This document shows, in pieces, positions 4,685 through 57,576 of a stretch of DNA of 64,000 nt. Position numbers and translations under genes: made by a program. The notes under the pieces are model-generated. The model had not been told where the DNA came from and made no database searches. It saw only the letters and a program-made list of their open reading frames with translations. The DNA comes from an uncultured bacterium (lineage in GTDB: Bacteria; Krumholzibacteriota; Krumholzibacteriia; JACNKJ01). The DNA is taken from positions 46,595-110,594 of the forward strand of contig CAZVHI010000005.1 in assembly GCA_964627205.1 (NCBI GenBank), read 5' to 3'. Position 1 is the stretch's first letter. Each line of letters starts with the position of its first letter.

Positions 4685-4694
4685 GAGGGGAGCG

Positions 4695-11783: not shown

Positions 11784-11834
11784 GCCCCGCGCCACTTGAC
11801 ATTTAGCCCACCTGGTGCTTTAGTAGGTGTTCGC

Positions 11835-11909: not shown

Positions 11910-11918
11910 GCGAACAGA

Positions 11919-11950
11919 CCCCGTCGCCGATCCAGGCGGCGGGGTTTTCC
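11919..11950 (+). terminator. Rho-independent terminator after tRNA-Phe.
   Basis: Stem CCCCGTCGCC / GGCGGCGGGG with a 7-nt loop, followed by TTTTCC. Confidence 0.55.
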
Positions 11951-16430: not shown

Positions 16431-16499
16431 AGGGTTGGTAGATCGGGCCGATAATCACTGCACCAGGTCCCTCGCACCCGTTCCAAGGAGCCCGATCCC

Positions 16500-19296: not shown

Positions 19297-19394
19297 GGGA
19301 GTGGATGGGTCCTGGTGGGCCCCGAGGACTTCAAATCCTTATGCCGGGTGCTAAACCCATCCGGGGTGGGTTCGATTCCCACACATTCCCGCCA
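19297..19394 (+). tRNA. selC: tRNA-Sec (selC; anticodon UCA), 98 nt with a long variable arm, encoded CCA.
   Basis: GGGAGTGGATGGGTCCTGGTGGGCC CCGAGGACTTCAAATCCTT ATGCCGGGTGCTAAACCCATCCGG GGTGGGTTCGATTCCCACACATTCCCGCCA. The anticodon stem-loop GGACTTCAAATCC is identical to E. coli selC, and the extended acceptor and long extra arm are typical of tRNA-Sec. Confidence 0.8.
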
Positions 19395-35172: not shown

Positions 35173-35321
35173 CGTTGTCCTCTCTTACTGCTCTTCCCCT
35201 TCTTCGCCGGAGTGGCCACCAGCGCTCTGATGAAGACGATGAAGAGCAGGAGATAGCCGATGACCAGCAGGTACTCGATGCCCTTGGTTGCGAAGATGTC
35301 CACGTACTCGAAACTTTCCAT
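35169..35321 (-). CDS. Unannotated 50-aa single-TM protein (putative small subunit of the redox complex).
   Basis: MESFEYVDIFATKGIEYLLVIGYLLLFIVFIRALVATPAKKGKSSKRGQR. Its TGA overlaps the cytochrome GTG start (GTGA), and its ATG lies 1 nt after the NrfD-like gene stop. Not in the ORF track (too short). Confidence 0.5.
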   Translation of the reverse strand: MESFEYVDIFATKGIEYLLVIGYLLLFIVFIRALVATPAKKGKSSKRGQR

Positions 35322-35322
35322 C

Positions 35323-36573
35323 TCATCCCCCCTTGCCTGTCGCCTCGTCCGCCGTCGCCCAGGCGGGCGGATCCCCGAGCACCGGCATCCGGTTCACGAC
35401 CCAGCGGAACACCCAGATCTCGGCGCAGATCACACCCAGTGTAACCTCGATCTCCATCCAGGTCGGCACGTAGCGCACGGCCGCGTCCCACTGGAAGGCG
35501 ATGACCGAGATGTTGAGCCGGTTGAGGATGATGCCGACCATCGCCAGGACCGCGGCGACGCGGATCGTGCCCACGCTACGGCTGCGCACCGCCCGGAAGA
35601 AGAGGACGCCGGGCAGGAGGACGAAGCCGATCACCTCGAGCAGGTACCAGGCTCCCCAGGCCGTTCCCAGCTGTTGCCAGTGCTGGCCGTGCACCAGGAT
35701 GAGCAGCTTCATGAAGAGGTAGACGAAGATCGCGCCGGCGCAGATCCGGCCCAGGCCGACGAGGATGTCGTCCTGGGACGCGTGCGCCCCGCGGCCGAGC
35801 CGGTGGCTGAACACCCTGTGGCTGATCGAGCCCTCGAAGATCACCATCGAGAGCCCGGCGAAGATGCTGGAGACGAAGAAGAGCACGGGGATGAACTCCG
35901 TGTACCACAGGGGATGGATCTTGCTCTTCGCCGTCAGGAAGAGCGCGCCGAGGCCCGACTGGTGCAGCGTGGAGAGCGTGATCCCGAAAATCACCGCGCC
36001 GATCGTCAGCACGGCGAAGATCCGCCGCACGCGCCGCCAGCCGAGCCACTCGGCCACGGCGGGGAAGAACTCGATCAGCTCGGCGAGCATGTAGAGCAGG
36101 AAGTGCCAGGCCACGAGGAAGAGCACCGAACTGACGCCGAAGGAGTTACCGATGATCGGATTGACGACGTTCCAGGGTCTGCCCAGGTCGAGCAATAGCG
36201 CGCCCGCGTAGAACACGTAGGCGAGGAAGCCGTTCAGGACCGTCGCCCGTACGATGGGGTGATACTGCTTGGCGCCGAGGATGTAGACGAGGAAGGTGAG
36301 CACGTAGGCACCGCCGGCGAAGGCGACGCCGGTGACCACGTCGAAGCCGATCCAGATGCCCCAGGGATAGTCCTGGGACAGGTTGGTGATCGCCCCGAGC
36401 CCCTTGGCGAAGCGGATCACAAGCAGGAACACAGCCAGCAGGATGATCGGAATCGAGATCAGGTTGAAGGGCGTCAGCAGGCTGCCCTTGGGCTTCAGCT
36501 CGCGCGCGAGGAAGCCGGCGAGCTCCCGAGGCCGGACGGCTTCTTGCGTCGGCGAACCCAAGGGCCGGCTCAT
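35323..36573 (-). CDS. NrfD/PsrC/HybB-family integral membrane quinone-interacting subunit.
   Basis: 416 aa with about 8-10 TM helices. NrfD-like topology. The start overlaps the FeS gene stop. Confidence 0.8.
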   Translation of the reverse strand: MSRPLGSPTQEAVRPRELAGFLARELKPKGSLLTPFNLISIPIILLAVFLLVIRFAKGLGAITNLSQDYPWGIWIGFDVVTGVAFAGGAYVLTFLVYILGAKQYHPIVRATVLNGFLAYVFYAGALLLDLGRPWNVVNPIIGNSFGVSSVLFLVAWHFLLYMLAELIEFFPAVAEWLGWRRVRRIFAVLTIGAVIFGITLSTLHQSGLGALFLTAKSKIHPLWYTEFIPVLFFVSSIFAGLSMVIFEGSISHRVFSHRLGRGAHASQDDILVGLGRICAGAIFVYLFMKLLILVHGQHWQQLGTAWGAWYLLEVIGFVLLPGVLFFRAVRSRSVGTIRVAAVLAMVGIILNRLNISVIAFQWDAAVRYVPTWMEIEVTLGVICAEIWVFRWVVNRMPVLGDPPAWATADEATGKGG

Positions 36574-37439
36574 GGCGCCTCCTCGCCCAAGGTCTCGCGC
36601 TCAGCGCGTCGCGTCCGACTCGCCCCGTAGAGGAAGGCCGGCCAGAGAAGCAGGATGATGGGCACGGAGTAGAGGAAATCCTGCGTGTGCTCCGGGATCG
36701 GTGTCGTCCCGAGATCGGTCCGGAAGCCGATCTGCTTGAAGGGGACCGCCGAGAGGTAGAGCCACGAGGTTCCACCCACCTCGCACTCGCCGTAGATGTC
36801 GTGAACGTACTTCTCCGGGTTGCCGTAGATCCTGCTCCGCGCGATCTCGACGAGCTCCCGGCGCGTGCCGAAGGCGAGCGCCTCGACGGGGCAGCCCTCG
36901 ACGCACGCGGGAATCTGCCCCTGCTGCAAGCGCTCCGCACAGAAGACGCACTTCTGGATCTTGGGGTTGGCGCTGTGGTACTCGAACTTGGGCACGTCGA
37001 AGGGGCAGGAGATCATGCAGTAGCGGCAGCCCATGCACTTGTCTCCGCGCCAGATGACCGGGCCCCGCCGCGTCTTGTGCATCGCCTGGACCAGGCAGGC
37101 CGACGCGCAACCGGGCTGGTTGCAGTGCATGCACTGCCGCTTGACGAAGAACTCACCCTTTTCCGTCTCGAAGCGGTTGACCACGGTCCACTGGGACGGG
37201 CTCGTCCGCCGTGGCTGAGCGAAGACGCTCTTGTCCTTGATGTCGGGCACGGGGAGGGCGTGGGTTTCCGCGCAGGCCTCCTCGCACTTGCGGCAGCCGT
37301 TGCAGCGCACGGTGTCGACGAGCACGGACAGGAACTCCGTGTCGTCTCCTCGCGCGGGAGCCCGGCCGGAGGCGCGTCCCGGCAGGAGACCCGTCCCCGC
37401 TGCGCCGCCCACCAGTTTGAGGAACTGCCTTCTCTCCAT
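36570..37439 (-). CDS. Tat-exported 4x[4Fe-4S] ferredoxin-type subunit (HybA/NrfC/PsrB/HmcB-like) with a C-terminal TM anchor.
   Basis: Twin-arginine signal MERRQFLKLVGGAAGTG. Four Cys clusters (CNGCRKCEEAC...CP, CMHCNQPGCASAC, CMGCRYCMISCP, CVFCAERL...CVEGCP). C-terminal hydrophobic helix. Confidence 0.85.
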   Translation of the reverse strand: MERRQFLKLVGGAAGTGLLPGRASGRAPARGDDTEFLSVLVDTVRCNGCRKCEEACAETHALPVPDIKDKSVFAQPRRTSPSQWTVVNRFETEKGEFFVKRQCMHCNQPGCASACLVQAMHKTRRGPVIWRGDKCMGCRYCMISCPFDVPKFEYHSANPKIQKCVFCAERLQQGQIPACVEGCPVEALAFGTRRELVEIARSRIYGNPEKYVHDIYGECEVGGTSWLYLSAVPFKQIGFRTDLGTTPIPEHTQDFLYSVPIILLLWPAFLYGASRTRRAERETLGEEAP

Positions 37440-39136: not shown

Positions 39137-39486
39137 GGAAGCGGACCGGACGGCCGCGGGCCCTCGGGTCCGAGGAAAGTCCGGGCTCCACAGGGCAGGG
39201 TGCTGGGTAACTCCCAGGGGAAGCGATTCCACGGAAAGTGCCACAGAAAATATACCGCCGGCTCCGGCCGGTAAGGGTGAAAAGGCGAGGTAAGAGCTCA
39301 CCGGGCGCCCGGTGACGGGCGTCGCACGGCAAACCCCACCCGGAGCAAGACCAAGCAGGGAAGACGAGGTGGCCCGCCTCGACCATTCCCGGGTAGGTTG
39401 CTCGAGGCGGCCGGTAACGGTCGCCCTAGATAAATGGCCGTCGCTCCCCGCGGGGAGGACAGAACCCGGCTTACAGGTCCGCTTCC
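39137..39486 (+). ncRNA. rnpB: RNase P RNA (rnpB, bacterial type A).
   Basis: P1 GGAAGCGGACC...GGTCCGCTTCC. P4 halves GAGGAAAGTCCGGGCTCC and ACAGAACCCGGCTTA. GGTAAGGGTGAAAAGGCGAGGTAAGAGCTCACC. A T-run follows. Several track ORFs here are artefacts. Confidence 0.85.
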
Positions 39487-39526
39487 TTTTCTTTTCCGCA
39501 GCGCAACCCCTGCCCACGGAGGACGC

Positions 39527-41305
39527 TTGGATCCCGCCCCCGCCCCCGCCCCTTCCTTCCACCTTCGCGAAGCGGCGCCTCCCGAGGAGAAGAGAAGGCT
39601 CGCGGCGGAGCTGAGCCTGCCGCCGGCCGTGGCCGACCTGGCCTGGCAGCGCGGCATCCGCGGTATGGCGGACTGGGAGGAGTGGACGTCGGTCGACGTC
39701 ACGGAGCAACACGATCCCCACCTCCTGCCCGACATGGACCTGGCCGTCGACCGCCTGCTCTTCGCGCGGGAGCACGGCCAGAAGGTGCTCGTCCACGGCG
39801 ACTACGACGTAGACGGCCTCACCGGCGCCGCGCTGCTCTACCGCGCCCTGCGCGGCCTCGGCCTAGACGCGCAGGCCTTCGTGCCGCACCGCGAGCGCGA
39901 CGGCTACGGTCTCTCGCGGCGCGCGCTCGAACACTCCCGCGAGCGCGGCTGCTCCCTGGTGGTGACGGTCGACTGCGGCTCCTCGGACGGCGAGCTGATC
40001 GAGGAGATGGCACTGGGCGGCCTGGACACCATCGTCACCGACCATCATCTCGCCACGGAGCGGCCGGAGGCGCTGGCCTTCGTGAGCCCGATGCGCAGCG
40101 GCAGCGAATACCCCTTCGAACACCTGGCCGGCAGCGCCATCGCCTACAAGCTGGCCCTCGCGCTGCACGAAGCGCTGGGCCGGCCCCAGGCGCCGGAGAC
40201 CTGGCTGGACTATGTCGCGCTGGGGACCGTGGCCGACGTGATGCCGCTCAAGGGCGAGAACCGCCTCCTGGTCCGGGCCGGCCTGCGGGAGATGAGCCGG
40301 CGGCTCACCGCCCGCAGGGGTTCGCGCGAGGATGTGCACCCCGCGTGGCGCGCGCTGGCCCGCGTGGCGAAGCTGCCGGCGGGCGAGCTCAGCGCCCAGG
40401 ACCTCGCCTTCCGCCTCGCACCGCGGCTCAACGCCCCCGGCCGCCTCGGCAGCGCCCGTCCGTCCCTCGACCTGCTCTGCGCCACGGACGCGGACGAGGT
40501 GGATTCGCTGGCCCGGCGCATCGAGGAGATCAACGAGCGCCGGCGCAAGCTCGAGGGCGTAATCACAGAGGACGCTCGCGAGGCGGCGCGCAGGCGCCTG
40601 GAGCGCGCCGAGCGCGAGAACAGGCACCTCGGCATCCTCGTGCTGGCCGGCGAGGGCTGGCAGCCGGGGGTGCTGGGGATCTCCGCCGCGCGGCTCGTCG
40701 AGGAGTTCGGGCTGCCGGTGCTCCTCATGGGGCTCGAGGCGGACGGCTCGGGCCGGGGCTCGGGCCGGGGCCAGGAGGGGCAGGACATGAAGAAGCTCCT
40801 GGACGGCGCCTGCGCCCACCTCGAGCGCCACGGGGGCCACCGCCGCGCCGTGGGCTTCAACCTGAAGGCCGGCCACTGGGAGAGTTTCTCCCGAGAGCTG
40901 GAGGACTGCCTGCCGGCCCCCGGCGGCGACGGCTCGTGCCGCCTCCTGATGGACGTCGCCGTGAAGGGCTCCGAGCTGAACCGCGACTTCCTCGACGGCC
41001 TCGAGCAGCTCGGCCCCTTCGGCGAGGGCAATCCCGAGCCGCTCCTGCTCCTGCGGCGAGCGGTGCCCACGGACGCGCGCGTGCTCAAGGGCTGTCACCT
41101 GCGCATCGAGTTCCTCGCAGACGATGGCCTGCGCCGCCGAGCCATCGTCTTCGGTCGCGCGGAGCAGCTGCAGGGCCGCGTCGAGCCGGGGGTCGAGACG
41201 GACCTCTGCCTGCGCGTCGCCCGCGACACCTATCAGCGGCGGCCCGGCGAGCACGGCGTCGCCCTGCACCTGGTGGACCTCGGACCGGCGGAGGCGGCGA
41301 GTTGA
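39527..41305 (+). CDS. recJ: Single-stranded-DNA-specific exonuclease RecJ.
   Basis: DHH motifs VHGDYDVDGLTG, DCG and TDHH, plus a DHHA1 domain. The track ORF (39434..) starts inside rnpB. Suggested TTG at 39527, preceded by GGAGGA; an alternative is ATG 39665. Confidence 0.8.
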   Translation: MDPAPAPAPSFHLREAAPPEEKRRLAAELSLPPAVADLAWQRGIRGMADWEEWTSVDVTEQHDPHLLPDMDLAVDRLLFAREHGQKVLVHGDYDVDGLTGAALLYRALRGLGLDAQAFVPHRERDGYGLSRRALEHSRERGCSLVVTVDCGSSDGELIEEMALGGLDTIVTDHHLATERPEALAFVSPMRSGSEYPFEHLAGSAIAYKLALALHEALGRPQAPETWLDYVALGTVADVMPLKGENRLLVRAGLREMSRRLTARRGSREDVHPAWRALARVAKLPAGELSAQDLAFRLAPRLNAPGRLGSARPSLDLLCATDADEVDSLARRIEEINERRRKLEGVITEDAREAARRRLERAERENRHLGILVLAGEGWQPGVLGISAARLVEEFGLPVLLMGLEADGSGRGSGRGQEGQDMKKLLDGACAHLERHGGHRRAVGFNLKAGHWESFSRELEDCLPAPGGDGSCRLLMDVAVKGSELNRDFLDGLEQLGPFGEGNPEPLLLLRRAVPTDARVLKGCHLRIEFLADDGLRRRAIVFGRAEQLQGRVEPGVETDLCLRVARDTYQRRPGEHGVALHLVDLGPAEAAS

Positions 41306-45742: not shown

Positions 45743-46164
45743 TGAATCACTTCAACAGAACGAGATGGGTGTGGTCATGGAGAGTGAAAGCAGAGCGAAT
45801 AAAGCGATCAGCAGGCGCAGACCGAGGAGCGGCTGCGGGCGGGGCTTGGGCATGATCTGTCCTCAAACATTTGAGCAGCATGGAATCCCGACACTGGATC
45901 GGAACGATCGTAGCGGTAACGACGAAACCGAGGTTTCCTTTCCGACATTCTCGTTACTCATATGACTCACGATCTCGCGCAATGATACCACACTGCTGCG
46001 CTTTCCCCATTGGATAGCCAGCTCGATCTTCGCCCGTGTTCGCCAACAGGGTCAATTGCGCTCCGCTCCGTGGGTGGCGTTGACTCCCGCCGGGGCCTGT
46101 GATAGTTTTCCGCCTCAGCGTCAAACCGTTGGAAAACCTGGACCTTCCGCGGAACAAGGAAGTC

Positions 46165-49029
46165 ATGCCGCCCACCGCGCTCCGCGCCGTCCCCTGGACG
46201 GGCCGCCTCCTGTGTCTGATGATCTGCTGCGGTCTCCTCGCATGCGCCGCCGTGCAGGCCGCGGCGCAGAGCTCGGGCGGAACCCTCACGGGCGTGATGA
46301 TCGACAAGGCCACGGGCGACCCGCTGGCCTATGGCAACGTCGTCCTGCTCGGTACCGACTATGGCGGCATGAGCCTGGACGACGGCACCTTCCTCGTCAC
46401 CAACATCCCCCCCGGCACCTACACGATCCGCGCCAGCTACATGGGCTACAAGATGGCCGAGAAGGCGCTGGTGCGCCTGCGCAACGGCACCGTCCTCGAG
46501 CTGGAGTTCGAGCTGGAGCCCACGGTGATCGAGTCGGAGACGATCACCGTCTATGGCGAGAAGCCCCTGGTGGACGTCACCGAGGCTTCGAGCATCAAAA
46601 GCCTGGCCGCGAGCGACATCGCCATGATGCCCGTGGAGACGGTGGAGGAGGTTGTGATCGCGCAGCCGGGCGTCGTGCAGCAGGACGACGAGATCCACAT
46701 CCGCGGCGGCCGCTCCGACGAGACCCTCGTGCTCGTCGACGGCGTGCCGATGAAGGACGCCCTGGCCGGCACGAGCAGCGCCAAGGGTATCGACTCGAAG
46801 TCCGTCGCCCAGATGGACCTGATCACCGGCGGCTGGCGTGCCGAGTTCGGCAACGCCATGGCGGGCGTCATCAACGTGACCCTCAAGGAAGGCGGCGAGA
46901 CCTTTAGCGGCTTCACCGAGTACGGCATCGACCACTTGCCCTTCGTCGGCACGGACTGGGAGCACTACTACACCGACACCTACAAATTCCAGTTCGGCGG
47001 GCCGATGCCCGGCAGCGGCACCTGGTTCCCCGGCGAGCGGCTGAGCTTCTTCAGCAACTTCTCCGGTCAGATCATGAATACGCGCTTCCCGAGCATCCGC
47101 AACATGCCGGGGGGCGAGGACCACGTGCAGATCCGCTACGAGGATAGCTTCCTGGGCATCCCCATCATCTGGAAGAGCCCCGACATCGCCCCGCGGCAGA
47201 ACAACAACTGGAACGTCATGGCGAAGGTGGCCTGGAAGCTGAACAAGGACCACAAGTTCACCCTGACCCTGACCAAGTACCTCGCCTTCGACCAGGGCTT
47301 CGACCGCCACGACATCAGCGACCTCACGCGGCAGAGCAACCGCTACCCCTACCGGTGGTCGCACTATCTCAACCACTACAGCGCCTTCCTCGAGGACCGC
47401 AACACGGCCGTGCTCAAGTACCGGCAGAACGTGTCGGGCAGCATGTTCCACGAGCTGCAGATCTCGCGCTTCTTCGTACGCATCCGGCAGGACTCGCAGA
47501 AAGAGGCCGTCGATGAGCTGCGTGACTACATCGCGCAGTACGCGCCCAGCGCACTCGACTGGCCCGACGCCGCCCAGGGCGAGTTCTGGGACTTCCATCC
47601 CTACTTCTATTTGAACGGGGACTACAACCAGTACCGGGACCGCTACACGGAGCGCTACGCGTTCAAGTGGGACATCACCAAGAAGTGGTACCCGCACCAC
47701 AAGGGGAAAGCCGGCTTCACGCTCGGCTACGAGAGCATCCAGAACATCGAGATCCGCGATCCCTGGATCCAGCGTGAAGACGGGCTTGGCCGCAAGGACA
47801 TCTTCCGTTCCTTTCCGACCACCGGGCACATCTACCTGCAGGACGACATCGAATACCAGGGCTTCGTTTCGAACGTCGGCCTGCGCACCGACATCTGGTT
47901 CCCGGGACAGTTGGCCGAAGGTGCCGCCCAGGCCGCCATCGACGGCACGGCCGGCGACCTCTTCACCGCCGAAGTGGGCCATGAGTACTTCCGAAGCACC
48001 AACAGCCTCTTCGGCAACCGCTACAAGTACACGATCAGCCCTCGCGTGGCGATCAGCTACCCGGTCACCGACAGGGACAACCTGTTCTTCAACTACGGGC
48101 ACTTCAGCCAGTGGCCCACCTACTACTACGTCTACACGCACGTGGCCAGCGGCGTGGAGGACCTCTTCGGCAACCTGGGCAACATCAATCTCGATCCCCA
48201 GATCACGATCCAGTACGAGCTGGGCGCGCGGCACAGCTTCAGCTACAACGTGGCCGGCGACCTGACGGTGTTCGTCCGCGACATCTTCAACTACCCGACG
48301 AGCGAGCGCTACACGGTGCAGTACTACGACCCGGTGGAGGGGAGCAAGGAGGCGACCTACTTCCTCTACCGCAACAGCGACTACTCGCGCAGCCGCGGCA
48401 TCGAGCTTTCTATACGCAAGCGGCGCGGGCGCTACTTCTCCGGGTCGGTCAACTACACCTTCTCCATCGCCACGGGCAAGAGCAGCGACCCGAACGCCCA
48501 GCGCGAGCTCTATGTCGGCGGCGCGACGGGCGAGGTCGAGCTGCAGGAGGGCTTCCTGTGGTGGAACCGGCCCCACCGCCTCACCGCCACCTGCGACTTC
48601 CGCGTACGCGACATCCGGGGCCCGGAGATCCTCGGCGTCCGGCTGCCCGGGCACTGGGGCTTCAACGCCTACTACAGCCTCTCCAGTGGCCGCGCCTACA
48701 CGCCGGAGGACACCACGGGCCAGCCCATCGGCGAGGACTACTCCCGCAACGGCCCCATCGAGCAGAACCTCAACATGAAGCTGCAGAAGTGGATCATCTG
48801 GGGCGACTACCGTATCGACCTCACCCTGCAGGGCTGGAACATCTTCAACTGGAGCCAGCCCCGGCACATCGACCCCATCACGGGTGATCACTACAAGGAG
48901 GGCTACGGCAGCTACGCAGCCCAGCTCACCGATCCCGACTCCCGGCTCTCGCGCTACCTCAGCCTCGCCGACCCCTCGCGCAACGGCAGCCCGCGCCGCT
49001 TCAAGCTCAGCCTGGGGGTGAACTTCTGA
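46165..49029 (+). CDS. TonB-dependent outer-membrane receptor, SusC/RagA-like (N-terminal CarbopepD_reg domain + plug + 22-strand barrel).
   Basis: Signal peptide, carboxypeptidase-regulatory-like domain (LTGVMIDKATGDPLAYGNVVLLGT...YTIRASYMGY), plug motif IHIRGGRSDETLVLVDGVP, and a C-terminal aromatic (F). The track ORF starts at 46099; ATG at 46165 follows RBS AAGGAAG. Confidence 0.85.
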   Translation: MPPTALRAVPWTGRLLCLMICCGLLACAAVQAAAQSSGGTLTGVMIDKATGDPLAYGNVVLLGTDYGGMSLDDGTFLVTNIPPGTYTIRASYMGYKMAEKALVRLRNGTVLELEFELEPTVIESETITVYGEKPLVDVTEASSIKSLAASDIAMMPVETVEEVVIAQPGVVQQDDEIHIRGGRSDETLVLVDGVPMKDALAGTSSAKGIDSKSVAQMDLITGGWRAEFGNAMAGVINVTLKEGGETFSGFTEYGIDHLPFVGTDWEHYYTDTYKFQFGGPMPGSGTWFPGERLSFFSNFSGQIMNTRFPSIRNMPGGEDHVQIRYEDSFLGIPIIWKSPDIAPRQNNNWNVMAKVAWKLNKDHKFTLTLTKYLAFDQGFDRHDISDLTRQSNRYPYRWSHYLNHYSAFLEDRNTAVLKYRQNVSGSMFHELQISRFFVRIRQDSQKEAVDELRDYIAQYAPSALDWPDAAQGEFWDFHPYFYLNGDYNQYRDRYTERYAFKWDITKKWYPHHKGKAGFTLGYESIQNIEIRDPWIQREDGLGRKDIFRSFPTTGHIYLQDDIEYQGFVSNVGLRTDIWFPGQLAEGAAQAAIDGTAGDLFTAEVGHEYFRSTNSLFGNRYKYTISPRVAISYPVTDRDNLFFNYGHFSQWPTYYYVYTHVASGVEDLFGNLGNINLDPQITIQYELGARHSFSYNVAGDLTVFVRDIFNYPTSERYTVQYYDPVEGSKEATYFLYRNSDYSRSRGIELSIRKRRGRYFSGSVNYTFSIATGKSSDPNAQRELYVGGATGEVELQEGFLWWNRPHRLTATCDFRVRDIRGPEILGVRLPGHWGFNAYYSLSSGRAYTPEDTTGQPIGEDYSRNGPIEQNLNMKLQKWIIWGDYRIDLTLQGWNIFNWSQPRHIDPITGDHYKEGYGSYAAQLTDPDSRLSRYLSLADPSRNGSPRRFKLSLGVNF

Positions 49030-50027
49030 TGCCGCCCCTACGCCGCATCCTCCCGCTCCTCGCCCTGCTCCTCCTGCTGGCCGGGCCCCTGCGCGCCGCC
49101 CAGGAGCTGGGCGCGCTGCGTGTGGCGACCAGCAGCGGTACATTCTTGAAAATCGGCATCGGCCCGCGGGCGGCGGCCATGGGCGGCGCCTGGTCGGCGA
49201 TCGCCGCCGACGCCACGGCCGCCTGGTACAATCCCGCCGGCCTGGGGCAGCTGCCCAACCGCCAGCTCTTCGCGGGCTACATCGCCTGGCCGGCGGGCAT
49301 CCACTATGGCAACTTCATCGTGGCCATGCCGATGGCGAGCCTGCGGGGCAACGTCGCCCTTCAGTTCGGCAACCTGTCGACGACACTCGACGAGACCGAC
49401 GAGTACCACCCCTACGGCACGGGGCGTCGCTTCGTCTATTCGGACTGGGTGCTGGGCGCGTCCTACGCGCGCTCGATGACCGACCAGCTCCTCTTGGGCC
49501 TGACCGTCAAGTACGTGCGCGAGGACCTCGGCTCGACGGTGGGGGGTCCCGTGATCAGCACCTGGGTGGTGGACGCGGGCACGCTCTACAGTATGGGCTT
49601 CCGAAACCTGCGCATCGGCATGAGCATCCAGAACTTCGGCCCCGACTTCAAGCCCGTGGGGAGCTACTGGAACCACGTCGAGGAGAAGGAGGAGGACTAC
49701 GAGGGCTTCCCGCCGCCGTCCGCCTTCAAGCTGGGGGTGGCCTTCGAGCCGTGGAAGAGCTACCCCTGGATCCTCACCCAGACCCTCGAGATGAACCATC
49801 TCGCCGACAACCAGGAGACGCTCGCCACGGGCCTCGAGCTGTCCTACATGGGCGGGCTCTTCGCCTTGCGCAGCGGCTACAACTTCATGGCCGACGAGAT
49901 GGGACTCGCGGCCGGCTTCGGCGCGACTTTCATGATGGGCTCGGCGCTGGCCGGGCTGGACTACTCCTACACGGACGGCAACTCGCTGGGGGGCATCCAT
50001 CGCTGGGCCCTCCGGCTGGACTTCTAG
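49029..50027 (+). CDS. FadL/PorV-like outer-membrane beta-barrel protein (possible T9SS-associated shuttle/PorP-PorV family).
   Basis: Signal peptide, then AAMGGAWSAIAADATAAWYNPAGLG (FadL/PorV-type N-terminal motif). C-terminal ...WALRLDF (aromatic terminus). Confidence 0.5.
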   Translation: MPPLRRILPLLALLLLLAGPLRAAQELGALRVATSSGTFLKIGIGPRAAAMGGAWSAIAADATAAWYNPAGLGQLPNRQLFAGYIAWPAGIHYGNFIVAMPMASLRGNVALQFGNLSTTLDETDEYHPYGTGRRFVYSDWVLGASYARSMTDQLLLGLTVKYVREDLGSTVGGPVISTWVVDAGTLYSMGFRNLRIGMSIQNFGPDFKPVGSYWNHVEEKEEDYEGFPPPSAFKLGVAFEPWKSYPWILTQTLEMNHLADNQETLATGLELSYMGGLFALRSGYNFMADEMGLAAGFGATFMMGSALAGLDYSYTDGNSLGGIHRWALRLDF

Positions 50028-50034
50028 GGGGGAG

Positions 50035-50973
50035 ATGCGCCGCGCGGTATGGCATCTACTGCTCTTCACCCTGCTGGCGGCGGCCTGCGGCGTGAAGCCC
50101 GAGCTGCCGAGCCAGATTCCCAGCACGGAGGTGCTGGGCGACGAGAGCTACACGCTGCCCTACTACTGGGTGATCGGCGGCGTGACGGACATGCTCGTGC
50201 ACCGCGGCACGCGCATCTTCTCGATCATCCAGGACGCCGACAGCGTGAGCATCTATCCCACCTACGCGCGCGGCGACACGCTGCCGAGCCACAAGCGCCT
50301 GTTCACGGGGCTCACTGCTCCGCGCCTGCTGGCCGACGGTAGCGACCACAAGTTCCGCCTCTGGGTCTACGACGACGGCGATGCCACGCTGAAGGGCTTC
50401 GACGGCGGCGAGTTCCTCGACACGCTGACGGTGGAGATCGCCCACAGCGATCCCGCCTGGCAGGACGTGGTGGCGGTCGCCGCGGACAACGAGGCGCGCG
50501 TCTTCGTGGCGGACCGGGCCGCCAACAAGATCTATCGCTACCGCGTGAGCGATCCGCCCGCGCCCGAGCTGGAGGCCGACGGCGAGATCCAGTGGGTATC
50601 TCAGCAGGCGGGGGCCACGGTGCGCGACCTGGCCTATTCCGCGGGCTGGCTCGTCCTGCTGGACGACGGGCTCGGCACGATCCAGCTTCTCGATCCGGCG
50701 AGCGAGCTCGATCCGGTCTTCGAGTACATGGACGGCGTGCTCGCCCAGCCGGAGGCCGTCACCGCGAACGAGGCGCACATCTTCGTGATGGACCGGGCCG
50801 ACACCACGATCTGGGAGATCGGTTGGGATCTCGAACCGGACGGCGCCCGCCGCGTGAACGAAGGCGCGAACCAGGTGCTGCGGAATCCCACGGCCTTCAC
50901 GGTGAACGAGAGCAAGGTCTACGTGGCTGACATCGAGCAGGGAAGGGTCTTCGACTATGAGAAGCGCCAGTAG
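50035..50973 (+). CDS. Lipoprotein with NHL/beta-propeller-like repeats.
   Basis: Lipobox LLAAAC. Repeated RVFVADRAANKIYRY, HIFVMDRADTTIWEI and KVYVADIEQGRVFDY blades. Confidence 0.55.
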   Translation: MRRAVWHLLLFTLLAAACGVKPELPSQIPSTEVLGDESYTLPYYWVIGGVTDMLVHRGTRIFSIIQDADSVSIYPTYARGDTLPSHKRLFTGLTAPRLLADGSDHKFRLWVYDDGDATLKGFDGGEFLDTLTVEIAHSDPAWQDVVAVAADNEARVFVADRAANKIYRYRVSDPPAPELEADGEIQWVSQQAGATVRDLAYSAGWLVLLDDGLGTIQLLDPASELDPVFEYMDGVLAQPEAVTANEAHIFVMDRADTTIWEIGWDLEPDGARRVNEGANQVLRNPTAFTVNESKVYVADIEQGRVFDYEKRQ

Positions 50974-53254
50974 ACGCAAAGCCGGCGGTCGCCGGCGTCT
51001 TCCGCTCGCCCTCTTGGCGCTGCCGGCGCTCCTGCTCGTCCTCGACGTCGGGCTCGGTGCGGGCCCGCGCTCCCACGACCTGCCGGCGGGCCTGCTGCCC
51101 GCGGAGCTGGGTCCCTTCTGGGCGGGCGAACGTGAGGACCTGCTGCTCGACTACGTCTTCAAGACGCAGAACGTGGGCAACATCGCGCTGGCGGTCTCGA
51201 ACCACGGTTTCCTGGGCAACAACTTCGCCACGCGCGACGCGTCGATGGAGTATCCCAAGGGCTCCGAGGTGGACCACCTGATCCGCGCGGGCATCTGGGT
51301 CGGGGGCATCAACGCGAACTTCGACACCCTGGTCACCACCGGCGTGCAGGACGGCTACTGGGGCAGCTACACGCGCCCGACCGAGTGGGTGCCGGTCTCG
51401 ATCCCGCCCGAGGAGCAGAACATGGGCTGGATCCGTGAGCGGAGCACGCTTCCGACGAGCCCCTACTACTCGCCCCAGGACGCCATCAGCGAGCAGGACT
51501 TCGTGACCGGCTTCCTCGACACGCTGGACCACCAGCGCACACCGTCGACGGGCAACGCGGACGACTGGCACAGCGCGAGCGGGCTGAACATCCTGCAGGA
51601 GAGCTTCGCCTGGAGCTACGAGCCGGCCGACGCGATGATCCTGCTCAAGTGGACCATGGTGCCCACCCAAACCCTGCTGAACGCGCACATCGGCATGTAC
51701 GCAGAGCTGACTACCGGTTGGAAGGGCCAGTATCCCATCGGCGATTGGCCGCCCAGCAGCGCGAACTGGTTCTACCACCACAACCTCTACTGGTTGGACG
51801 ACCTGCCTGACTACGCCGAGCTCAGCGAGGAGCCGTACAACATGGTGGCCGAGCACCACTGGACCTACGGCGACGGCCGCGCACCCCAGCACGCGGGCAT
51901 CAAGTTCCTCGGCGCGAAGTACAAGCCCTCGGGCGGCGAGTGGAGCGAGGACGTCTCGCAGGTCTCCTGGCGCTGGTGGGACTGGGAGCCCGGCAGCCTG
52001 GCACGGGACAACGACCACGAAAAGTATCCCATCATGGCCGAGCCGGGCGTCGATGACTGGACCGAGATCACACCGGCGCCGGACAGCTCCGGCGACAGCC
52101 CTGTGCAGCTGTTGAGCGTCGGGCCCTGGAATCTCTATCCGGGCGGCGAGGGGCAGGATCCCGACACTCTCGTCCTCTCCTGGGCGATGCTGGCCGGCGA
52201 CAGCTTCGAAGACCTCGTGGACAACGCCCTCTACGCGCAGACCGTCTACAGCTTCAACTTCACGGTGCCCACGCCGCCCCACTCGCCCCGCACCCGCGTG
52301 GAGTCGGACGAGAATCGGATCCGCGTGCTCTGGGAGGGGAGCCCCGAGCTCTCGGTGGACGCGGTGACCGGCGACTACGACTTCGAGGGCTACCGGATCT
52401 ACGTCGGCCGCAGCTCCGAGGAGGCGAGCTACGACCTGGTCAAGGAGTTCGACCTCGCGGAGATCCCCGCGAAGAATCCGCTCTTCGACGCCTACTTCAC
52501 CTCGACCTGGCTCCAGTCGGAGCTGGACGAGCATCCGGAGTGGGACAGCTTCCAGGACGTTCTCGACGACTGGTGGAGCCCCGGTGTCTACACCTGGCAC
52601 GAAGGCACGACGGCGCCCTTCCACGTGACCGAGCGCGATTCGGTGGGCTACAACACCGGCCTCGGCGGCGTCCTGATGGACGAGGAGGACTGGGTGGTCG
52701 AGGGCGAAGGGGCCGACAGCACGGTCTACAAGTACGAGTTCGTGCTGGAGAACGTCTCCGACGGCCATCACTACTGGATCTCCGTGACGAGTTTCGACCT
52801 CGGCAATCCGGAGACGCCGAGCCTCGAGAGCGGCGCCGGCCAGAACGTCCAGAGCGTCGTCCCCGGACGCAGCCCGGCGAGCGCCGCGGGGCAGAAGGTG
52901 ACGGTCTTCCCCAATCCCTACCGCGGCAGCGCGATCTGGGACAGCAACCGTGCCACGGGACGCTACGTCTGGTTCGCGGGATTGCCCGCCCGGGCGCAAA
53001 TCAAGGTGTTCACGCTCGCGGGCGACCTGGTGGCGGAGATCGACTTCGACAGCGAGACCTATACCGGTAGCAACGCCGCGGGTGTCTACCCGGGCGGCGA
53101 GGGCGCCCAGCCGCCCATCCTGCCGGGCACGATGGCGGCCTGGGACCTGCGCAGCCACAACGGCCAGCCCGTCGCCACGGGGCTCTATCTCTTCTCGGTC
53201 ACCGACGAGAGCACGGGCGAGACCCAGCAGGGCAAGTTCTTGGTGCTGAAGTGA
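50957..53254 (+). CDS. Large secreted protein with FN3-like region and C-terminal T9SS/FlgD-Ig-like sorting domain (putative T9SS cargo).
   Basis: Signal peptide. The C-terminal roughly 100 aa, KVTVFPNPYRG...GLYLFSVTDESTGETQQGKFLVLK, resembles Por_Secre_tail/FlgD_ig CTDs. Confidence 0.6.
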   Translation: MRSASRRKAGGRRRLPLALLALPALLLVLDVGLGAGPRSHDLPAGLLPAELGPFWAGEREDLLLDYVFKTQNVGNIALAVSNHGFLGNNFATRDASMEYPKGSEVDHLIRAGIWVGGINANFDTLVTTGVQDGYWGSYTRPTEWVPVSIPPEEQNMGWIRERSTLPTSPYYSPQDAISEQDFVTGFLDTLDHQRTPSTGNADDWHSASGLNILQESFAWSYEPADAMILLKWTMVPTQTLLNAHIGMYAELTTGWKGQYPIGDWPPSSANWFYHHNLYWLDDLPDYAELSEEPYNMVAEHHWTYGDGRAPQHAGIKFLGAKYKPSGGEWSEDVSQVSWRWWDWEPGSLARDNDHEKYPIMAEPGVDDWTEITPAPDSSGDSPVQLLSVGPWNLYPGGEGQDPDTLVLSWAMLAGDSFEDLVDNALYAQTVYSFNFTVPTPPHSPRTRVESDENRIRVLWEGSPELSVDAVTGDYDFEGYRIYVGRSSEEASYDLVKEFDLAEIPAKNPLFDAYFTSTWLQSELDEHPEWDSFQDVLDDWWSPGVYTWHEGTTAPFHVTERDSVGYNTGLGGVLMDEEDWVVEGEGADSTVYKYEFVLENVSDGHHYWISVTSFDLGNPETPSLESGAGQNVQSVVPGRSPASAAGQKVTVFPNPYRGSAIWDSNRATGRYVWFAGLPARAQIKVFTLAGDLVAEIDFDSETYTGSNAAGVYPGGEGAQPPILPGTMAAWDLRSHNGQPVATGLYLFSVTDESTGETQQGKFLVLK

Positions 53255-53283
53255 GCGCGCCCGGGAGGAAAGGGATTCGCAAC

Positions 53284-54840
53284 ATGCGTTCGATTGCCAC
53301 GACGATCCTGCTTGCTGCCTGTGCCGCGGCGCTGCTCTACGGCTGCACGGACGAGGGTAGCCTGTTGCCCAACCAACCGCCCGAGACCCTGCTGGTCGTG
53401 GACGACACCGAGCTCGACACCACCCACTACATCCAGACGCTCAGCTGGCACGGCGAGGACCACGACGGCGAGGTGCTGCGCTTCGAGTACAAGTGGACTC
53501 TCGCGGACGGCACGACCGCGGGCGACTTCGATACGACCTGGGTGGGGCTCGTCGAGCCCTTCGTCACCGTGACGCGCGACACCTTCTTCCTGCCTGTGCC
53601 CACTGTCTGGGCGGACACGCTGACTCATCACTTCCAGGTCCGCGCGGTGGACGACGAGGGCGCCGTCGACGCCACGCCGGCAAGCGCGCGGATCCGGGTC
53701 TTCAATCAGGCCCCGCGCCTCTACGCGATCGCGGGCGGTGACACGAGCAGCACGCTGGTGCTGCCCGAGAGCATCCTGCCCGTGCTGAGCTTCCAGTTCC
53801 GGGTCATCGATCCCGACAACCCCCTGCCGGACCAGGAGGACGCGGGCGCCTACATCGACGAGTTTCGCTTCTGGTTCGAGGACTCGCTGGACTACATGTC
53901 CCTGCCGCCCAGCGACACCCTGCTCACCGTGCGCCCCGAGGAGTTCGGCGAGCAGGTGGGGATGGAGCGGGAGTTCCACCTGCAGGCGGTGGACCTGGGC
54001 GGCGCCATGAGCAACGTACTCGCCGCGAGCACCTTCGTCCAGGACGTCACGAGCGCCCGTGTGCTCGTCCTCGACTCCGCGGATTCCTTCTCCCCCTCGG
54101 TGAGCATCGTCGATCCCTTCTGGCACGACGAGGTGGCAGGCCTGCTGCCCGCCGACGAGGTCTACCTGCACGATTTCGAGGCCGACGGGCCACTCGTCCA
54201 CCCCGACCACCTCCATCTTATCTTCTCTCTGTTCGAAGCGGTGCTGTGGTATAATGGTGGGGCGGGAAGCGCGGATAACACTAGCAGTAGCGAGCCCACG
54301 CCCGAAATCAGCGAGGCCGAGACTGGCCTGCGTGCCTATCTCGAAGGGGGGGGCAAGGTTCTGCTGTCGAGCTACAACCTGATCGGGGCCAGCGTCAGCC
54401 CGATCTCGGGCGGAAGCCTCTCGGCCGAGTTCGAGACGGAGGTGCTCCTCACCGACAGCCTCTTCGTGCACGTGTCGGGCACGCCGGACAATCTGCCGTC
54501 CTCCAACTGGCGAGTCTGGCCGCCGACAGCAGAGATCCCGGGCTTCCCGGCTGTAGGAACGGAGACCCTCCGCAACGCCACCGCTCTGCGGGGGATCGAC
54601 CGGATGTCCCTGCAGCCAACCGCTCTGGCAGACGGCGTGATCGAGGAGCTCTACTTTCTCCCGCAGGGCAGCTTCGATCCGCCCAGTGCCGACGAGGGCG
54701 GCTCGGTGGGTGTCCGTCGCTACTTCGATTCCGGCGGGGAGTTGGTCTTGCTCACCTTCCCGATCAGCCTCGCCGGGGGGTACGACAACAACCTGGAGCA
54801 GATGGAAAGATTCTTGACCGCTTTCGGAGTGACTCCATGA
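53284..54840 (+). CDS. Hypothetical lipoprotein (about 519 aa).
   Basis: Lipobox LLAACAAALLYGC, RBS GGGAGGAAAGGG. No recognizable catalytic motifs. Confidence 0.5.
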   Translation: MRSIATTILLAACAAALLYGCTDEGSLLPNQPPETLLVVDDTELDTTHYIQTLSWHGEDHDGEVLRFEYKWTLADGTTAGDFDTTWVGLVEPFVTVTRDTFFLPVPTVWADTLTHHFQVRAVDDEGAVDATPASARIRVFNQAPRLYAIAGGDTSSTLVLPESILPVLSFQFRVIDPDNPLPDQEDAGAYIDEFRFWFEDSLDYMSLPPSDTLLTVRPEEFGEQVGMEREFHLQAVDLGGAMSNVLAASTFVQDVTSARVLVLDSADSFSPSVSIVDPFWHDEVAGLLPADEVYLHDFEADGPLVHPDHLHLIFSLFEAVLWYNGGAGSADNTSSSEPTPEISEAETGLRAYLEGGGKVLLSSYNLIGASVSPISGGSLSAEFETEVLLTDSLFVHVSGTPDNLPSSNWRVWPPTAEIPGFPAVGTETLRNATALRGIDRMSLQPTALADGVIEELYFLPQGSFDPPSADEGGSVGVRRYFDSGGELVLLTFPISLAGGYDNNLEQMERFLTAFGVTP

Positions 54841-54914
54841 ATGAACGTGCCCGCGGGACCGCCCAGGGCCCACGGCATCAATCGGTCTTAATAGTTAGCC
54901 TTCAGGGGGCAGTG

Positions 54915-56789
54915 ATGAAACATTTCGTAACGTTCGCGATCCTTGGCCTGATGCTCATAGCGAGCCCGGCCTGGGCACAGGAAGTCCACACTCTCTACGA
55001 GATCAACACGGACCAGGTGATAGAAGGCACCTTCGTTCGCGTAGAGGACGTCATCGTGACCGGGGTTTCCTATAATGGTTGTTACGTCCAGGAGCAGGCC
55101 GGCGGCGAGTACAGCGGCGCCTGGCTCTACACGGGCGGCGCCCCGGGAACAGTCATCGGCGACCTCGTGGACATCGAGGCCATCTACGAGGAATACTACG
55201 GCATGACCGAGCTCAACGCCTCGAGCACGGGCGGCTGGGTCGTCGTGGACACGGGCTACTTCCCCTCGCCGTACGTCGCCCGGGCCGCGGAGGTCAACAC
55301 CGCGCATCCCCTGGAAGCCGAGAAGTGGGAGTGCGTGCTGGTCCAGGTGCTCAACGTCGAGTTGACCATCCCGCCTGACGAATATGGCGGCTGGTTCGCG
55401 ATGGAGTTCGGCTACCCGGACAACGACCAGATCATGGCCGACGACCAGCTCGGCGTTCCGGGCCCCACCGAGATCGGCACGCAGATCTCGTCGATCACAG
55501 GCCCCCTGCAGTTCTCCTTCGACGACTTCAAGATCCAGCCACGCGATGACGACGACATCGTCTACATCGGCGCGGCGCCAGCGCCCAACCTCGACTACGC
55601 CATCGTCACGGGCGCGAGTACGATCGACGTCCGCTTCGACCGCGACGTGGATGAGGGGACGGCGGAGACCGCCGGCAACTACTTCCTCGACGTTGGCACA
55701 GTCCTCACCGCCGAGCTCGACGCGGTGGAGTTCGACCTCGTGCACCTGACCCTGCAGGATCCCATGACCGTCGAGGTCCTGCTGACACTGACCGTCTTCG
55801 ACGTGCAGAACACGGATGGGATCCCGATGTCCCCGCAGGACGTGCCGTTCTGGGGCGGCATCAACGACGTGCCCTTCGTCCAGTTCCCCGACGCGAACGG
55901 CGACTCGAGCGCGATCATGAACGAGTACGTCACGCTCACCGGCGTCGTGCACAGCAAGTACGACATCTGGGGCAACCACGTCTACCTGCAGGATATCAAC
56001 CCGCCCCTGCCGGACCGCGTGCCCTTCAATGGCATCGAGATCTACATGTCCTCGCTGCTGGACGAGATCCAGGTGGGCGACATCGTGGTGATCGGCGACA
56101 TGCTGACCGAGTACTACGGCATGACCTCCATGACCGAGCCCTTCCTGCACTATGAGATCGTCTCGAGCGGAAACACCGTGCTCGGCCCCGAGGAGATCAC
56201 GATCGGCGATCCCACCGACGCGGCGCACTACGAGCAGTACGAGGGCGCCCTGGTCGAGGTGAAGGAGGTCGTGGTCGTAGAAAGGCCCGGCGAGTGGAAC
56301 TTCTACGACTGGGCGGTCAGCGTCGACTGGCTGAACTGGCTCCGGGTCGGCAGCATGGGCGACTACGACTACAATCCCGGCCTCGGCGACACCCTGAACG
56401 TCCGGGGCACGCTGCGCTACGAGTACGGCGAGTACAAGCTCATGCCACGCAGCGACGACGATATCGACATCATCTGGCAGAACCCGATCTCGGTGCCCGG
56501 GATGCCGGCCGAGGGCAACTTCCTGGCCCAGAACTATCCGAATCCGTTCAACCCCGCGACGAAGATCGCCTTCCGCCTCGCCAGCGAGGGCGAGGCCGTG
56601 TTGTCGGTCTTCGACGTCCAGGGGCGCCTGGTCAAGACCCTGCACACGGGCGTGCTGCCCGCGGGCGAGCAGCAGGTGATCTGGCACGGCGACACGGAAC
56701 AGGGATCGGAGGCGCCGAGCGGTCTCTACCTCTACCGCCTGCAGACGGCGGAGGAGACCCTGACGCGCAGCATGCTGTTACTCAAGTAG
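54915..56789 (+). CDS. Secreted protein with internally duplicated domain and type-A T9SS C-terminal sorting domain.
   Basis: Signal peptide MKHFVTFAILGLMLIASPAWA. Two copies of a ...V.V.GVV...Y.......Y.QD...GI.IY......GD.V.I.G...EYYGMTE[LM] module. C-terminal NFLAQNYPNPFNPATKIAF...GLYLYRLQTAEETLTRSMLLLK (TIGR04183-like). Confidence 0.65.
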   Translation: MKHFVTFAILGLMLIASPAWAQEVHTLYEINTDQVIEGTFVRVEDVIVTGVSYNGCYVQEQAGGEYSGAWLYTGGAPGTVIGDLVDIEAIYEEYYGMTELNASSTGGWVVVDTGYFPSPYVARAAEVNTAHPLEAEKWECVLVQVLNVELTIPPDEYGGWFAMEFGYPDNDQIMADDQLGVPGPTEIGTQISSITGPLQFSFDDFKIQPRDDDDIVYIGAAPAPNLDYAIVTGASTIDVRFDRDVDEGTAETAGNYFLDVGTVLTAELDAVEFDLVHLTLQDPMTVEVLLTLTVFDVQNTDGIPMSPQDVPFWGGINDVPFVQFPDANGDSSAIMNEYVTLTGVVHSKYDIWGNHVYLQDINPPLPDRVPFNGIEIYMSSLLDEIQVGDIVVIGDMLTEYYGMTSMTEPFLHYEIVSSGNTVLGPEEITIGDPTDAAHYEQYEGALVEVKEVVVVERPGEWNFYDWAVSVDWLNWLRVGSMGDYDYNPGLGDTLNVRGTLRYEYGEYKLMPRSDDDIDIIWQNPISVPGMPAEGNFLAQNYPNPFNPATKIAFRLASEGEAVLSVFDVQGRLVKTLHTGVLPAGEQQVIWHGDTEQGSEAPSGLYLYRLQTAEETLTRSMLLLK

Positions 56790-56898: not shown

Positions 56899-57576
56899 TC
56901 AGCGGCGGAAGCGCTGTTCGGCGATTTCCTCGTCGCCGTGAAGGATGTAGAGCTCCTCGCTGCCCGTCGAGGCGCCCAGGAAAAGCCCGACTACACTGCC
57001 GGCCCCTCCGAAGACCATGGCACCGAGCAGGGCCGAATCCCCCGCATCCAGATGGAGTATGCCGTCTCGCGGTTCACCTTGGCTGATGACGAGGCCTAGC
57101 AACGCGCCGGCGGTCGCGCCGGTGAGGACGCCGTAGCCCAGGCCCTGCATCGCGCCGCTCGAACGGCTGCTCACGGAGATCCAGGCGATATGGGTCGTGG
57201 GGACGGCGATGCGAACCTCAGAATCCACACCACGCCAGAAGGTCGAGTCCGGTCGGATTTCCAGGTCGTAGGCGGAGCTCGTCCGCAGGCCGGTGAAGGT
57301 CACCATGCACTTGCGACCCGCGGTGATCGCGTTCAGCTCGGCAAGCGACACCTTTTCGGACTCCTCGTCCCGCCCTTTCATCCGGGTCTGGAAGCCCGAC
57401 CCCTCCTCGACCCCGCTGCCAGCGGGGGAGGGATTCAGCTCCACCTTGCGGATGCTCGTGCAGTCCGCCAGGCCGAGCACCGTGGCCGCCGCGAACATAG
57501 CGCCTGCGGCCCACCTCGAGCGCCGGGATCTCACCGGTCTTTTCATCCTGCGAACCTTTCTGGTGGGCGGATACAT
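56899..57576 (-). CDS. Lipoprotein with a C-terminal glycine-zipper membrane domain.
   Basis: Lipobox VLGLADC. C-terminal GATAGALLGLVISQ...GAMVFGGAGSVVGLFLGAS. The track ORF extends upstream to 57858. Start at ATG 57576 (GGAGA RBS) or 57546. Confidence 0.5.
   Translation of the reverse strand: MYPPTRKVRRMKRPVRSRRSRWAAGAMFAAATVLGLADCTSIRKVELNPSPAGSGVEEGSGFQTRMKGRDEESEKVSLAELNAITAGRKCMVTFTGLRTSSAYDLEIRPDSTFWRGVDSEVRIAVPTTHIAWISVSSRSSGAMQGLGYGVLTGATAGALLGLVISQGEPRDGILHLDAGDSALLGAMVFGGAGSVVGLFLGASTGSEELYILHGDEEIAEQRFRR

Follow-up and report, generated by a model that had tools for sequence, protein, structure and literature searches.

A six-gene outer-membrane cassette encoding a TonB-dependent transporter, a PorQ-like barrel and proteins with type IX secretion tails is conserved across phyla

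What does a TonB-dependent receptor (TBDR) do in a gene cluster that also encodes an outer-membrane barrel, two lipoproteins and two proteins with type IX secretion system (T9SS) tails, and that has neither a SusD partner nor a recognizable enzyme? The question is raised by six genes (g1 to g6) in a 64,000-nucleotide stretch of DNA, here called the window, from an uncultured bacterium of the Krumholzibacteriota (GenBank assembly GCA_964627205.1, contig CAZVHI010000005.1, positions 46,595 to 110,594 of the forward strand). A preliminary description of the window had reported six co-directional genes separated by gaps or overlaps of no more than 75 nt. All six open reading frames (ORFs) are present on the plus strand at 46165–56789, at the places it had given, and neighbouring genes either overlap, by 1 nt at g1/g2 and by 17 nt at g3/g4, or are separated by gaps of 7 nt (g2/g3), 29 nt (g4/g5) and 74 nt (g5/g6), the last being the largest of the set. 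The coding signal of g1–g6 is strong at the third codon position (GC3 of 0.87–0.95 versus GC2 of 0.38–0.48), and for three of the six proteins there is no family in Pfam.

The answer starts with the conservation of the cluster. We scanned the GTDB species representatives with an alignment of g4 and recovered at least 600 stretches, at least 571 of which were confirmed; the loci compared below are the best 80 of these, and the six-gene counts, made with family hidden Markov models (HMMs), refer to the 38 loci with full 10-kb flanks. All six genes are present in 37 of the 38 fully flanked loci, which bears out the conserved synteny that the preliminary description had proposed as a check. The best 80 loci belong to Eisenbacteria, Ignavibacteria/Ignavibacteriota, Kryptoniota, Bacteroidota, Fermentibacteria, WOR-3 and Neomarinimicrobiota (Marinimicrobia). 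The carriers in the Bacteroidota are Rhodothermales, including the cultured Rubrivirga sp. IMCC43871 (NZ_CP177355.1), Chitinophagales, Salibacteraceae and Schleiferiaceae. When the ORFs of these loci were clustered, the recurrent families were exactly the six of the window, and no other family, whether enzyme, nuclease or regulator, recurred beside the cassette in the related loci. The six-family arrangement is far beyond chance and constitutes a co-inherited unit across at least seven phyla, which argues strongly for one joint function. Literature searches on T9SS or TonB in Krumholzibacteriota or Eisenbacteria, and on PorV in Ignavibacteria, turned up no description of the cassette. Its wide conservation across phyla, undescribed in the literature searched, is the main new result of the analysis.

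The order of the genes varies with the lineage. The window's order (1-2-3-4-5-6) is also that of a Krumholzibacteriota-like locus (L007), of Eisenbacteria and of WOR-3, and the order 4-6-5-1-2-3 is found in Ignavibacteria, Bacteroidota, Marinimicrobia, Fermentibacteria and Kryptoniota. In this second order, g2 is followed by a homolog of g3 (hhalign probability 99.8%, E 3e-30). Loci of Eisenbacteria often have an extra g4 paralog directly upstream of the TBDR gene (4-1-2-3-4-5-6), as in L008 (positions 10001–11935), L015, L025 and L028. Split forms also occur. One locus (L094, 8071–11812) retains a g2-g3-g4 block without the TBDR gene, g5 or g6, and the persistence of this block with no TBDR nearby ties g2 to g4; another (L093, 9986–13220) has g4-g5 alone. 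The missing genes of both loci may lie elsewhere in those genomes. The closest relatives of the window's cassette are in Krumholzibacteriota, and the window's g4 is about 71–73% identical to proteins of Candidatus Krumholzibacteriota metagenome-assembled genomes (MAGs). An exhaustive profile search assigned 1,302 clusters at 50% identity to the g4 family (E≤1e-30). Cassette genes were also seen on two short contigs binned outside the Fibrobacterota-Chlorobiota-Bacteroidota (FCB) superphylum, one titled Methylomirabilota (L086) and one titled Limnocylindria (P0257). These are likely cases of mis-binning because the gene pattern and the identity resemble those of Eisenbacteria.

The first gene of the cassette (g1) codes for a protein with the conserved domains of TBDRs, all scoring above cut-off in Pfam (CarbopepD_reg_2, 51.6 bits; Plug, 39.0 bits with a cut-off of 23.9; TonB_dep_Rec_b-barrel, 45.7 bits with a cut-off of 27). 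A signal peptide and a CarboxypepD_reg N-terminal domain are followed by a TonB-box-like motif (ETITVYG, 46537–46557), the plug and the barrel, which ends in GVNF with the terminal phenylalanine; the TonB box and the C-terminus were assigned by motif inspection only. In its sequence, g1 has every hallmark of a working TonB-dependent transporter (TBDT) and reads as a bona fide member of this group. The role in uptake, which the preliminary description had also suggested, is inferred only from these TBDR features. That description had also called the receptor SusC-like, which is right for the N-terminal domain architecture and wrong for the family. The SusC/RagA model (TIGR04056) has no match in the window's g1 at E≤1e-3, which rules out membership and confines the likeness to the N-terminal architecture; g1 orthologs give partial matches only (29 of 35, best 2.2e-31). 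No substrate-specific NCBIfam equivalog was matched by g1. The best match of the g1 profile in the PDB (9gbc_A), a structure cited in a paper on siderophore piracy by Bacteroides, covers the N-terminal 255 residues only and is uninformative on the substrate.

The barrel protein (g2) belongs to the PorV/PorQ family (NF033709), whose model it matches with 146.5 bits (cut-off 90) and which is also matched by all 38 of its orthologs (best 2.8e-72). Among the named equivalogs it scored best against PorQ (NF033711, 63.8 bits with a cut-off of 220), and its length (332 aa) is close to the 335 positions of the PorQ model. PorV2 (52.9 bits, far below cut-off) and PorV (NF033710, 41.1 bits with a cut-off of 250) followed, and all 38 orthologs behave like the window's g2 in this respect. 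The g2 family profile matched PorV (6h3i_F) at E 6.6e-26 and the FadL-type protein TodX at only 1.4e-4, and the Pfam matches of g2 to PorV and FadL were below their thresholds. Because of these family and equivalog scores and the profile E-values, g2 is best placed in a clade of its own within the T9SS carrier-barrel family, apart from PorV, PorQ and PorV2, and not among generic FadL proteins. Thus, of the FadL/PorV-like barrel with PorV as cargo shuttle that had been proposed, the PorV/PorQ family stands, and the FadL likeness and the identity with PorV do not. An ordinary hydrophobic-compound transporter, named beforehand as the outcome that would speak against a T9SS link, was looked for and is not what the profiles point to. 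A homolog search with g2 in the related 3.6-Mb Krumholzibacteriota-like genome that carries L007 returned only cassette orthologs and no PorV/PorQ paralogs. Single-sequence searches of the PDB with g2, g3 and g6 gave trivial matches only (the Ig domain of FlgD and a weak match to PorV).

PorV-family barrels are carriers that receive cargo with a T9SS C-terminal domain (CTD) at the translocon (PMC10994853). Two surface proteins of the system retain their CTDs, with PorZ anchored on PorQ and PorU on PorV (PMC10947112, PMC12365241, PMC10202324). Since the g2 clade is closer to PorQ in score and size, the better analogy would be with a dedicated anchor for a cargo that keeps its CTD, as in the PorQ-PorZ pair.

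The candidate for such a cargo is g4, for which there is no Pfam or NCBIfam family and whose profile had no match among PDB sequences. Its AlphaFold2 model (pLDDT 86, pTM 0.82) shows a supersandwich, then an FN3 domain and then a 7-strand C-terminal sandwich. In 45 of 49 members of the family the C-terminus matches the PorZ model over its final 86 positions, whereas the generic type A CTD model is matched by 3 of the 49. This tail is the only part of g4 that matches the PorZ equivalog (NF052228, 28.4 bits with a cut-off of 260), and the protein lacks beta-propellers. Three acidic residues of g4 (E124, D162 and D169) show a conservation of more than 95% across 86 sequences.

The second tailed protein, g6, matches the ExeM_NucH model in two stretches (E 9e-14) that correspond to the non-catalytic N-terminal part of those nucleases, and an internal duplication (E 3e-5) was detected in it. 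Its tail passes the type A model (TIGR04183, 31.3 bits with a cut-off of 23). Both g4 and g6 therefore carry T9SS-type CTDs, so that the tailed cargo announced by the preliminary description comprises two proteins. Among 45 g6 orthologs, 42 match Por_Secre_tail, 12 the nucleic-acid OB fold (PF01336) and 8 DUF5689 (E<0.01), and some have a CBM_56 domain. The DUF5689 match of the window's own g6 is marginal (PF18942, 13 bits and E 0.098, with a cut-off of 28.6), and one ortholog passes the model (40.5 bits, positions 20–216 of 217). In the Krumholzibacteriota-like locus L007, additional proteins of FlgD_ig/CTD type flank the cassette at 2916–4997 (minus strand) and 16082–17131 (plus strand), and hence many T9SS-type tails exist in the lineage.

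The remaining two genes (g3 and g5) code for lipoproteins. The lipobox cysteine of g3 (Cys18) is invariant in the family. The window's g3 alone has no Pfam match; 35 of 37 orthologs match NHL (best 6.4e-16) and 7 match the 6-bladed propeller family DUF5128. By these matches, the NHL lipoprotein of the preliminary description is confirmed at the level of the family. In g5, two Ig/FN3-like domains precede a GATase1-like domain. We considered g5 as a catalytic class I glutamine amidotransferase and rejected it, because it does not have the catalytic Cys-His-Glu triad and lacks a nucleophile. Both g4 and g5 have folds of binding type and no catalytic domain. The last three proteins (g4, g5 and g6) are extremely acidic: their net charges range from −57 to −71 and their isoelectric points (pI) from 4.05 to 4.30, compared with pI values of about 5.4–5.7 for the g1 and g2 barrels. 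Such acidity may reflect the binding of Ca2+ or another cation, or of a cationic ligand.

We propose that the products of the six genes form a single surface complex at the outer membrane, centred on g1, in which a dedicated PorQ-like barrel would hold the components exported by the T9SS in the way that PorZ is held by PorQ, and we give this reading a probability of roughly one half. It is the most likely one because bacteria that are very distant in evolution have inherited together a private barrel of PorQ size, a cargo whose CTD is PorZ-like, and a TBDT. Under this proposal, the T9SS would export g4, and probably g6, for docking on g2. The g2 protein would be a PorQ-like barrel of the 14-strand type that acts as cognate carrier and anchor, holding g4 at the cell surface beside g1 through its PorZ-like and probably uncleaved CTD. 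The NHL propeller protein (g3) and the protein with Ig/FN3 and non-catalytic GATase1-like domains (g5) would be accessory lipoprotein subunits. The supersandwich of g4, the OB/DUF5689-like domains of g6 and the Ig domains of g5 would bind a ligand outside the cell and pass it on to g1, which would import it with energy from TonB. This ligand would most likely be a polymer, whether a glycan or a nucleic acid. The leads to it conflict: the relatedness of g6 to DUF5689 points to a nucleic acid, whereas the carbohydrate-type fold of g4 and the CBM_56 domain of some g6 orthologs point to a glycan.

Known systems provide precedents for the parts of this complex. For example, DdbCD is an established case of a TBDT with a dedicated surface binder (bioRxiv 10.1101/2025.03.18.642099). 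Furthermore, the FadL/PorV-like barrel BamG of the Bacteroidota BAM complex sits beside another barrel, BamA, and holds the surface protein BamH with its extracellular loops (PMC12578637). SprF/PorP-like barrels are likewise cognate carriers that anchor CTD cargo, in this case adhesins with type B CTDs, at the cell surface (PMC10994853). The cassette differs from BamG-BamH in the partner barrel, which is BamA there and a TBDT here, and from SprF/PorP in the family of the barrel and in the class of the CTD.

Several observations weigh against the proposed complex. No T9SS core genes were found in the window or within 10 kb of it. A TBDR-like barrel can serve T9SS function rather than classical nutrition, as PorF does (PMC5445135, PMC12704123). 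The housekeeping setting, the apparently single copy and the lack of a regulator or riboswitch fit a constitutive envelope function as well as they fit nutrient uptake. Finally, no degradative enzyme accompanies the genes, which is unusual for polymer import.

The function of PorF leads to a first alternative, in which the cassette is not a nutrient importer but an accessory or attachment module of the T9SS and the operon counterpart of PorF, PorQ and PorZ of Porphyromonas gingivalis, where PorZ presents a glycolipid to the sortase; the supersandwich of g4 would have a surface glycan or lipopolysaccharide (LPS) as its ligand, and the glycan would be recycled or imported through g1. We regard it as a serious alternative, though a rather unlikely one. 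The architecture of g1, g2 and g4 parallels that of PorF, PorQ and PorZ, and PorQ is the best named equivalog of g2. PorF (PG0534), a barrel of TBDR type like g1, is needed for full T9SS function and has been proposed to import glycans for the biogenesis or linkage of anionic LPS (A-LPS), and porF, porQ and porZ mutants share similar partial phenotypes (PMC5445135, PMC12704123). In P. gingivalis, as in the cassette, a barrel of the PorV/PorQ family is paired with a T9SS-exported surface protein, and the PorZ CTD, which the tail of g4 resembles in most of its family, is retained for anchoring (PMC10947112, PMC12365241, PMC10202324). The single copy of the cassette, its housekeeping context next to envelope genes and the carbohydrate-type fold of g4 are also consistent with such a module. 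However, g2 misses the PorQ and PorV equivalog cut-offs by a wide measure, and g4 has a supersandwich and an FN3 domain in place of the two beta-propellers of PorZ, which it matches in the CTD only. The pair also shares its operon here with genes for a TBDR, two lipoproteins and another cargo, and the cassette has no PorU-like sortase. Furthermore, it is present in Bacteroidota orders that include MAGs of Flavobacteriales and Chitinophagales, and looks additional to the core T9SS. Flavobacteriales and Chitinophagales carry canonical PorQ and PorZ.

We consider even less probable that the cassette captures and takes up extracellular nucleic acid, with g6 binding DNA and g1 importing it. The reading would make the cassette kin to DdbC-DdbD of Bacteroides thetaiotaomicron (ddbABCDEF) and to RA0C_RS04915/04920, which acts in natural transformation of Riemerella. 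In both systems a CarboxypepD_reg-type TBDR has a dedicated DUF5689/OB-like surface partner, and these partners (DdbD and RA0C_RS04920) function in DNA use or transformation (bioRxiv 10.1101/2025.03.18.642099; PMC8459023). The match of g6 to the non-catalytic part of ExeM/NucH, the OB-fold and DUF5689 matches among its orthologs and the one ortholog past the DUF5689 cut-off agree with this kinship. On the other hand, the DUF5689 match of the window's g6 is marginal, and its two modules have net charges of −29 and −27 with a Lys+Arg content of 2.5–4.4% (ortholog median pI 4.8), the reverse of what a surface that binds DNA typically has. No nuclease is encoded in the cassette or recurrently near it, whereas the known systems encode nucleases alongside; their partner is a lipoprotein and the one here a very acidic T9SS cargo. 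The cassette adds a PorQ-like barrel, g3, g4 and g5 to the pair, and the CBM_56 domain of some g6 orthologs and the fold of g4 point to carbohydrate instead.

It is very unlikely that the locus is a conventional polysaccharide-utilization locus (PUL) with unrecognised enzymes, in which the g4 supersandwich would be a novel glycoside hydrolase or lyase. The conserved acidic residues of g4 would suit such an enzyme, and the cassette shares with SusCD PULs and utilisomes a TBDT with a CarboxypepD_reg-type N-terminal domain, operon-encoded surface accessories, and FN3/Ig and carbohydrate-type folds. Yet a supersandwich is normally a non-catalytic N-terminal domain, and the (alpha/alpha)6 catalytic domain is absent from g4. 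None of the six proteins matches a SusD, carbohydrate-active enzyme (CAZyme) or peptidase model (Pfam, NCBIfam), and none of the three was called within 10 kb on either side; the preliminary description was thus correct in seeing no SusD and no recognizable enzyme. The SusC/RagA signature is also lacking, and no sensor or regulator is present at the locus or its flanks. PULs are variable and multi-copy; the cassette, by contrast, occurs in a single copy, is invariant across phyla and lies among housekeeping genes, and its accessories are predicted to leave the cell through the T9SS and not by lipoprotein export alone. Finally, the idea that g2 is an ordinary FadL-type channel for hydrophobic compounds with unrelated neighbours and no joint system, which has in its favour weak Pfam matches to Toluene_X and UPF0164 and the JGI name ‘long-subunit fatty acid transport protein’ of some orthologs, is effectively refuted by the PorV/PorQ family and profile matches and the six-gene synteny.

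The TBDT-centred complex proposed above can be extended, speculatively, to an ancient machine of the FCB superphylum that couples type IX secretion to TonB transport. In this extension, which we hold to be rather unlikely, T9SS cargo permanently docked on a PorQ-like barrel through retained CTDs would form the extracellular lid and antenna of a TBDT. The machine would be either the ancestral operon form of PorF-PorQ-PorZ or a general device for the uptake of polymers (possibly DNA) or for competence in phyla without SusD.

TBDTs with surface partners (SusCD, BtuBG and DdbCD) explain much of the ecological success of the Bacteroidota, and all TBDT surface partners known to us are lipoproteins. 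If the proposed complex exists, its partners would be T9SS cargo on a private PorQ-like barrel, and two machineries that are hallmarks of the superphylum would thereby be linked. Because carriers such as Rubrivirga are in culture, the cassette is a genetically tractable handle. It would also be useful for understanding the role of the TBDR-like PorF in the T9SS and the capture of substrates without SusD in FCB bacteria outside the Bacteroidia.

The coordinates of the genes and domains are collected in Table 1. Public pipelines differ on three of the starts, giving lengths of 954 or 976 aa for g1, 765 or 746 aa for g4 and 650 or 624 aa for g6. Upstream of g1, no riboswitch was found (Rfam, no match at E≤1), and a scan for promoter and terminator consensus sequences did no better than on shuffled sequence.

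Table 1. Cassette genes and their predicted domains in the window, with likely starts chosen from signal peptides, lipoboxes and the N-termini of orthologs.
Feature	Position	Strand	Details
Intergenic, presumed operon promoter region	45743..46164	+	about 420 bp upstream of g1
g1, TonB-dependent receptor	46165..49029	+	954 aa from ATG 46165; JGI call from GTG 46099, 976 aa
g2, PorV/PorQ-family outer-membrane barrel	49029..50027	+	332 aa, signal peptide, C-terminal Phe
g3, NHL-repeat six-bladed beta-propeller-family lipoprotein	50035..50973	+	312 aa, Cys18 at 50086-50088
g4, secreted protein with PorZ-like T9SS CTD	50957..53254	+	765 aa, signal peptide
g4, galactose-mutarotase-like supersandwich	about 51158-52258	+	
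g4, FN3 with insertion	about 52271-52873	+	
g4, PorZ-like T9SS CTD	about 52889-53251	+	ends in GKFLVLK
g5, lipoprotein, Ig/FN3 and GATase1-like	53284..54840	+	518 aa, Cys21 at 53344-53346
g5, two Ig/FN3-like domains	about 53371-54048	+	WxGxDxDG motifs
g5, GATase1/ThuA/GIFT-like domain	about 54049-54837	+	without catalytic Cys
g6, secreted protein with type A T9SS CTD	54915..56789	+	624 aa from ATG 54915; 650 aa from 54837
g6, OB (DUF5689-like) modules, ExeM/NucH-N-terminal type	about 54978-55571 and 55857-56471	+	flank an Ig-like domain
g6, type A T9SS CTD	about 56529-56786	+	TIGR04183

The window lies within a JGI metagenome contig of 132 kb, and housekeeping genes flank the cassette on both sides. 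The upstream flank contains recJ, relA/spoT, dtd, maf and an eIF-2B-like gene, and the downstream flank an AP-endonuclease-2 gene, rplM, rpsI, rpsB, tsf, pyrH, frr, uppS, cdsA, dxr, rseP, an Omp85 gene and tamB. A convergent ORF of 199 aa (56899–57498, minus strand) with a lipobox-like GLADC motif, a Gly-rich C-terminal hydrophobic region and no Pfam family follows g6 in the window and is not kept beside the cassette in the Krumholzibacteriota-like locus L007.

We also identified other features elsewhere in the window. A bacterial RNase P RNA of class A (39138–39489, plus strand, 315.9 bits) overlaps the 5' end of the longest recJ ORF (39434–41305); the true start of recJ is therefore further downstream, in agreement with the JGI call of 592 aa. 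A selenocysteine tRNA (19297–19390, plus strand; Rfam tRNA-Sec, 73.3 bits) is also present, and the Krumholzibacteriota-like organism therefore probably uses selenoproteins. Finally, a cluster on the minus strand (34045–37439) encodes a multihaem cytochrome (Cytochrome_C7/CIII-like) and an NrfD-family membrane protein, a combination that suggests an anaerobic respiratory module.

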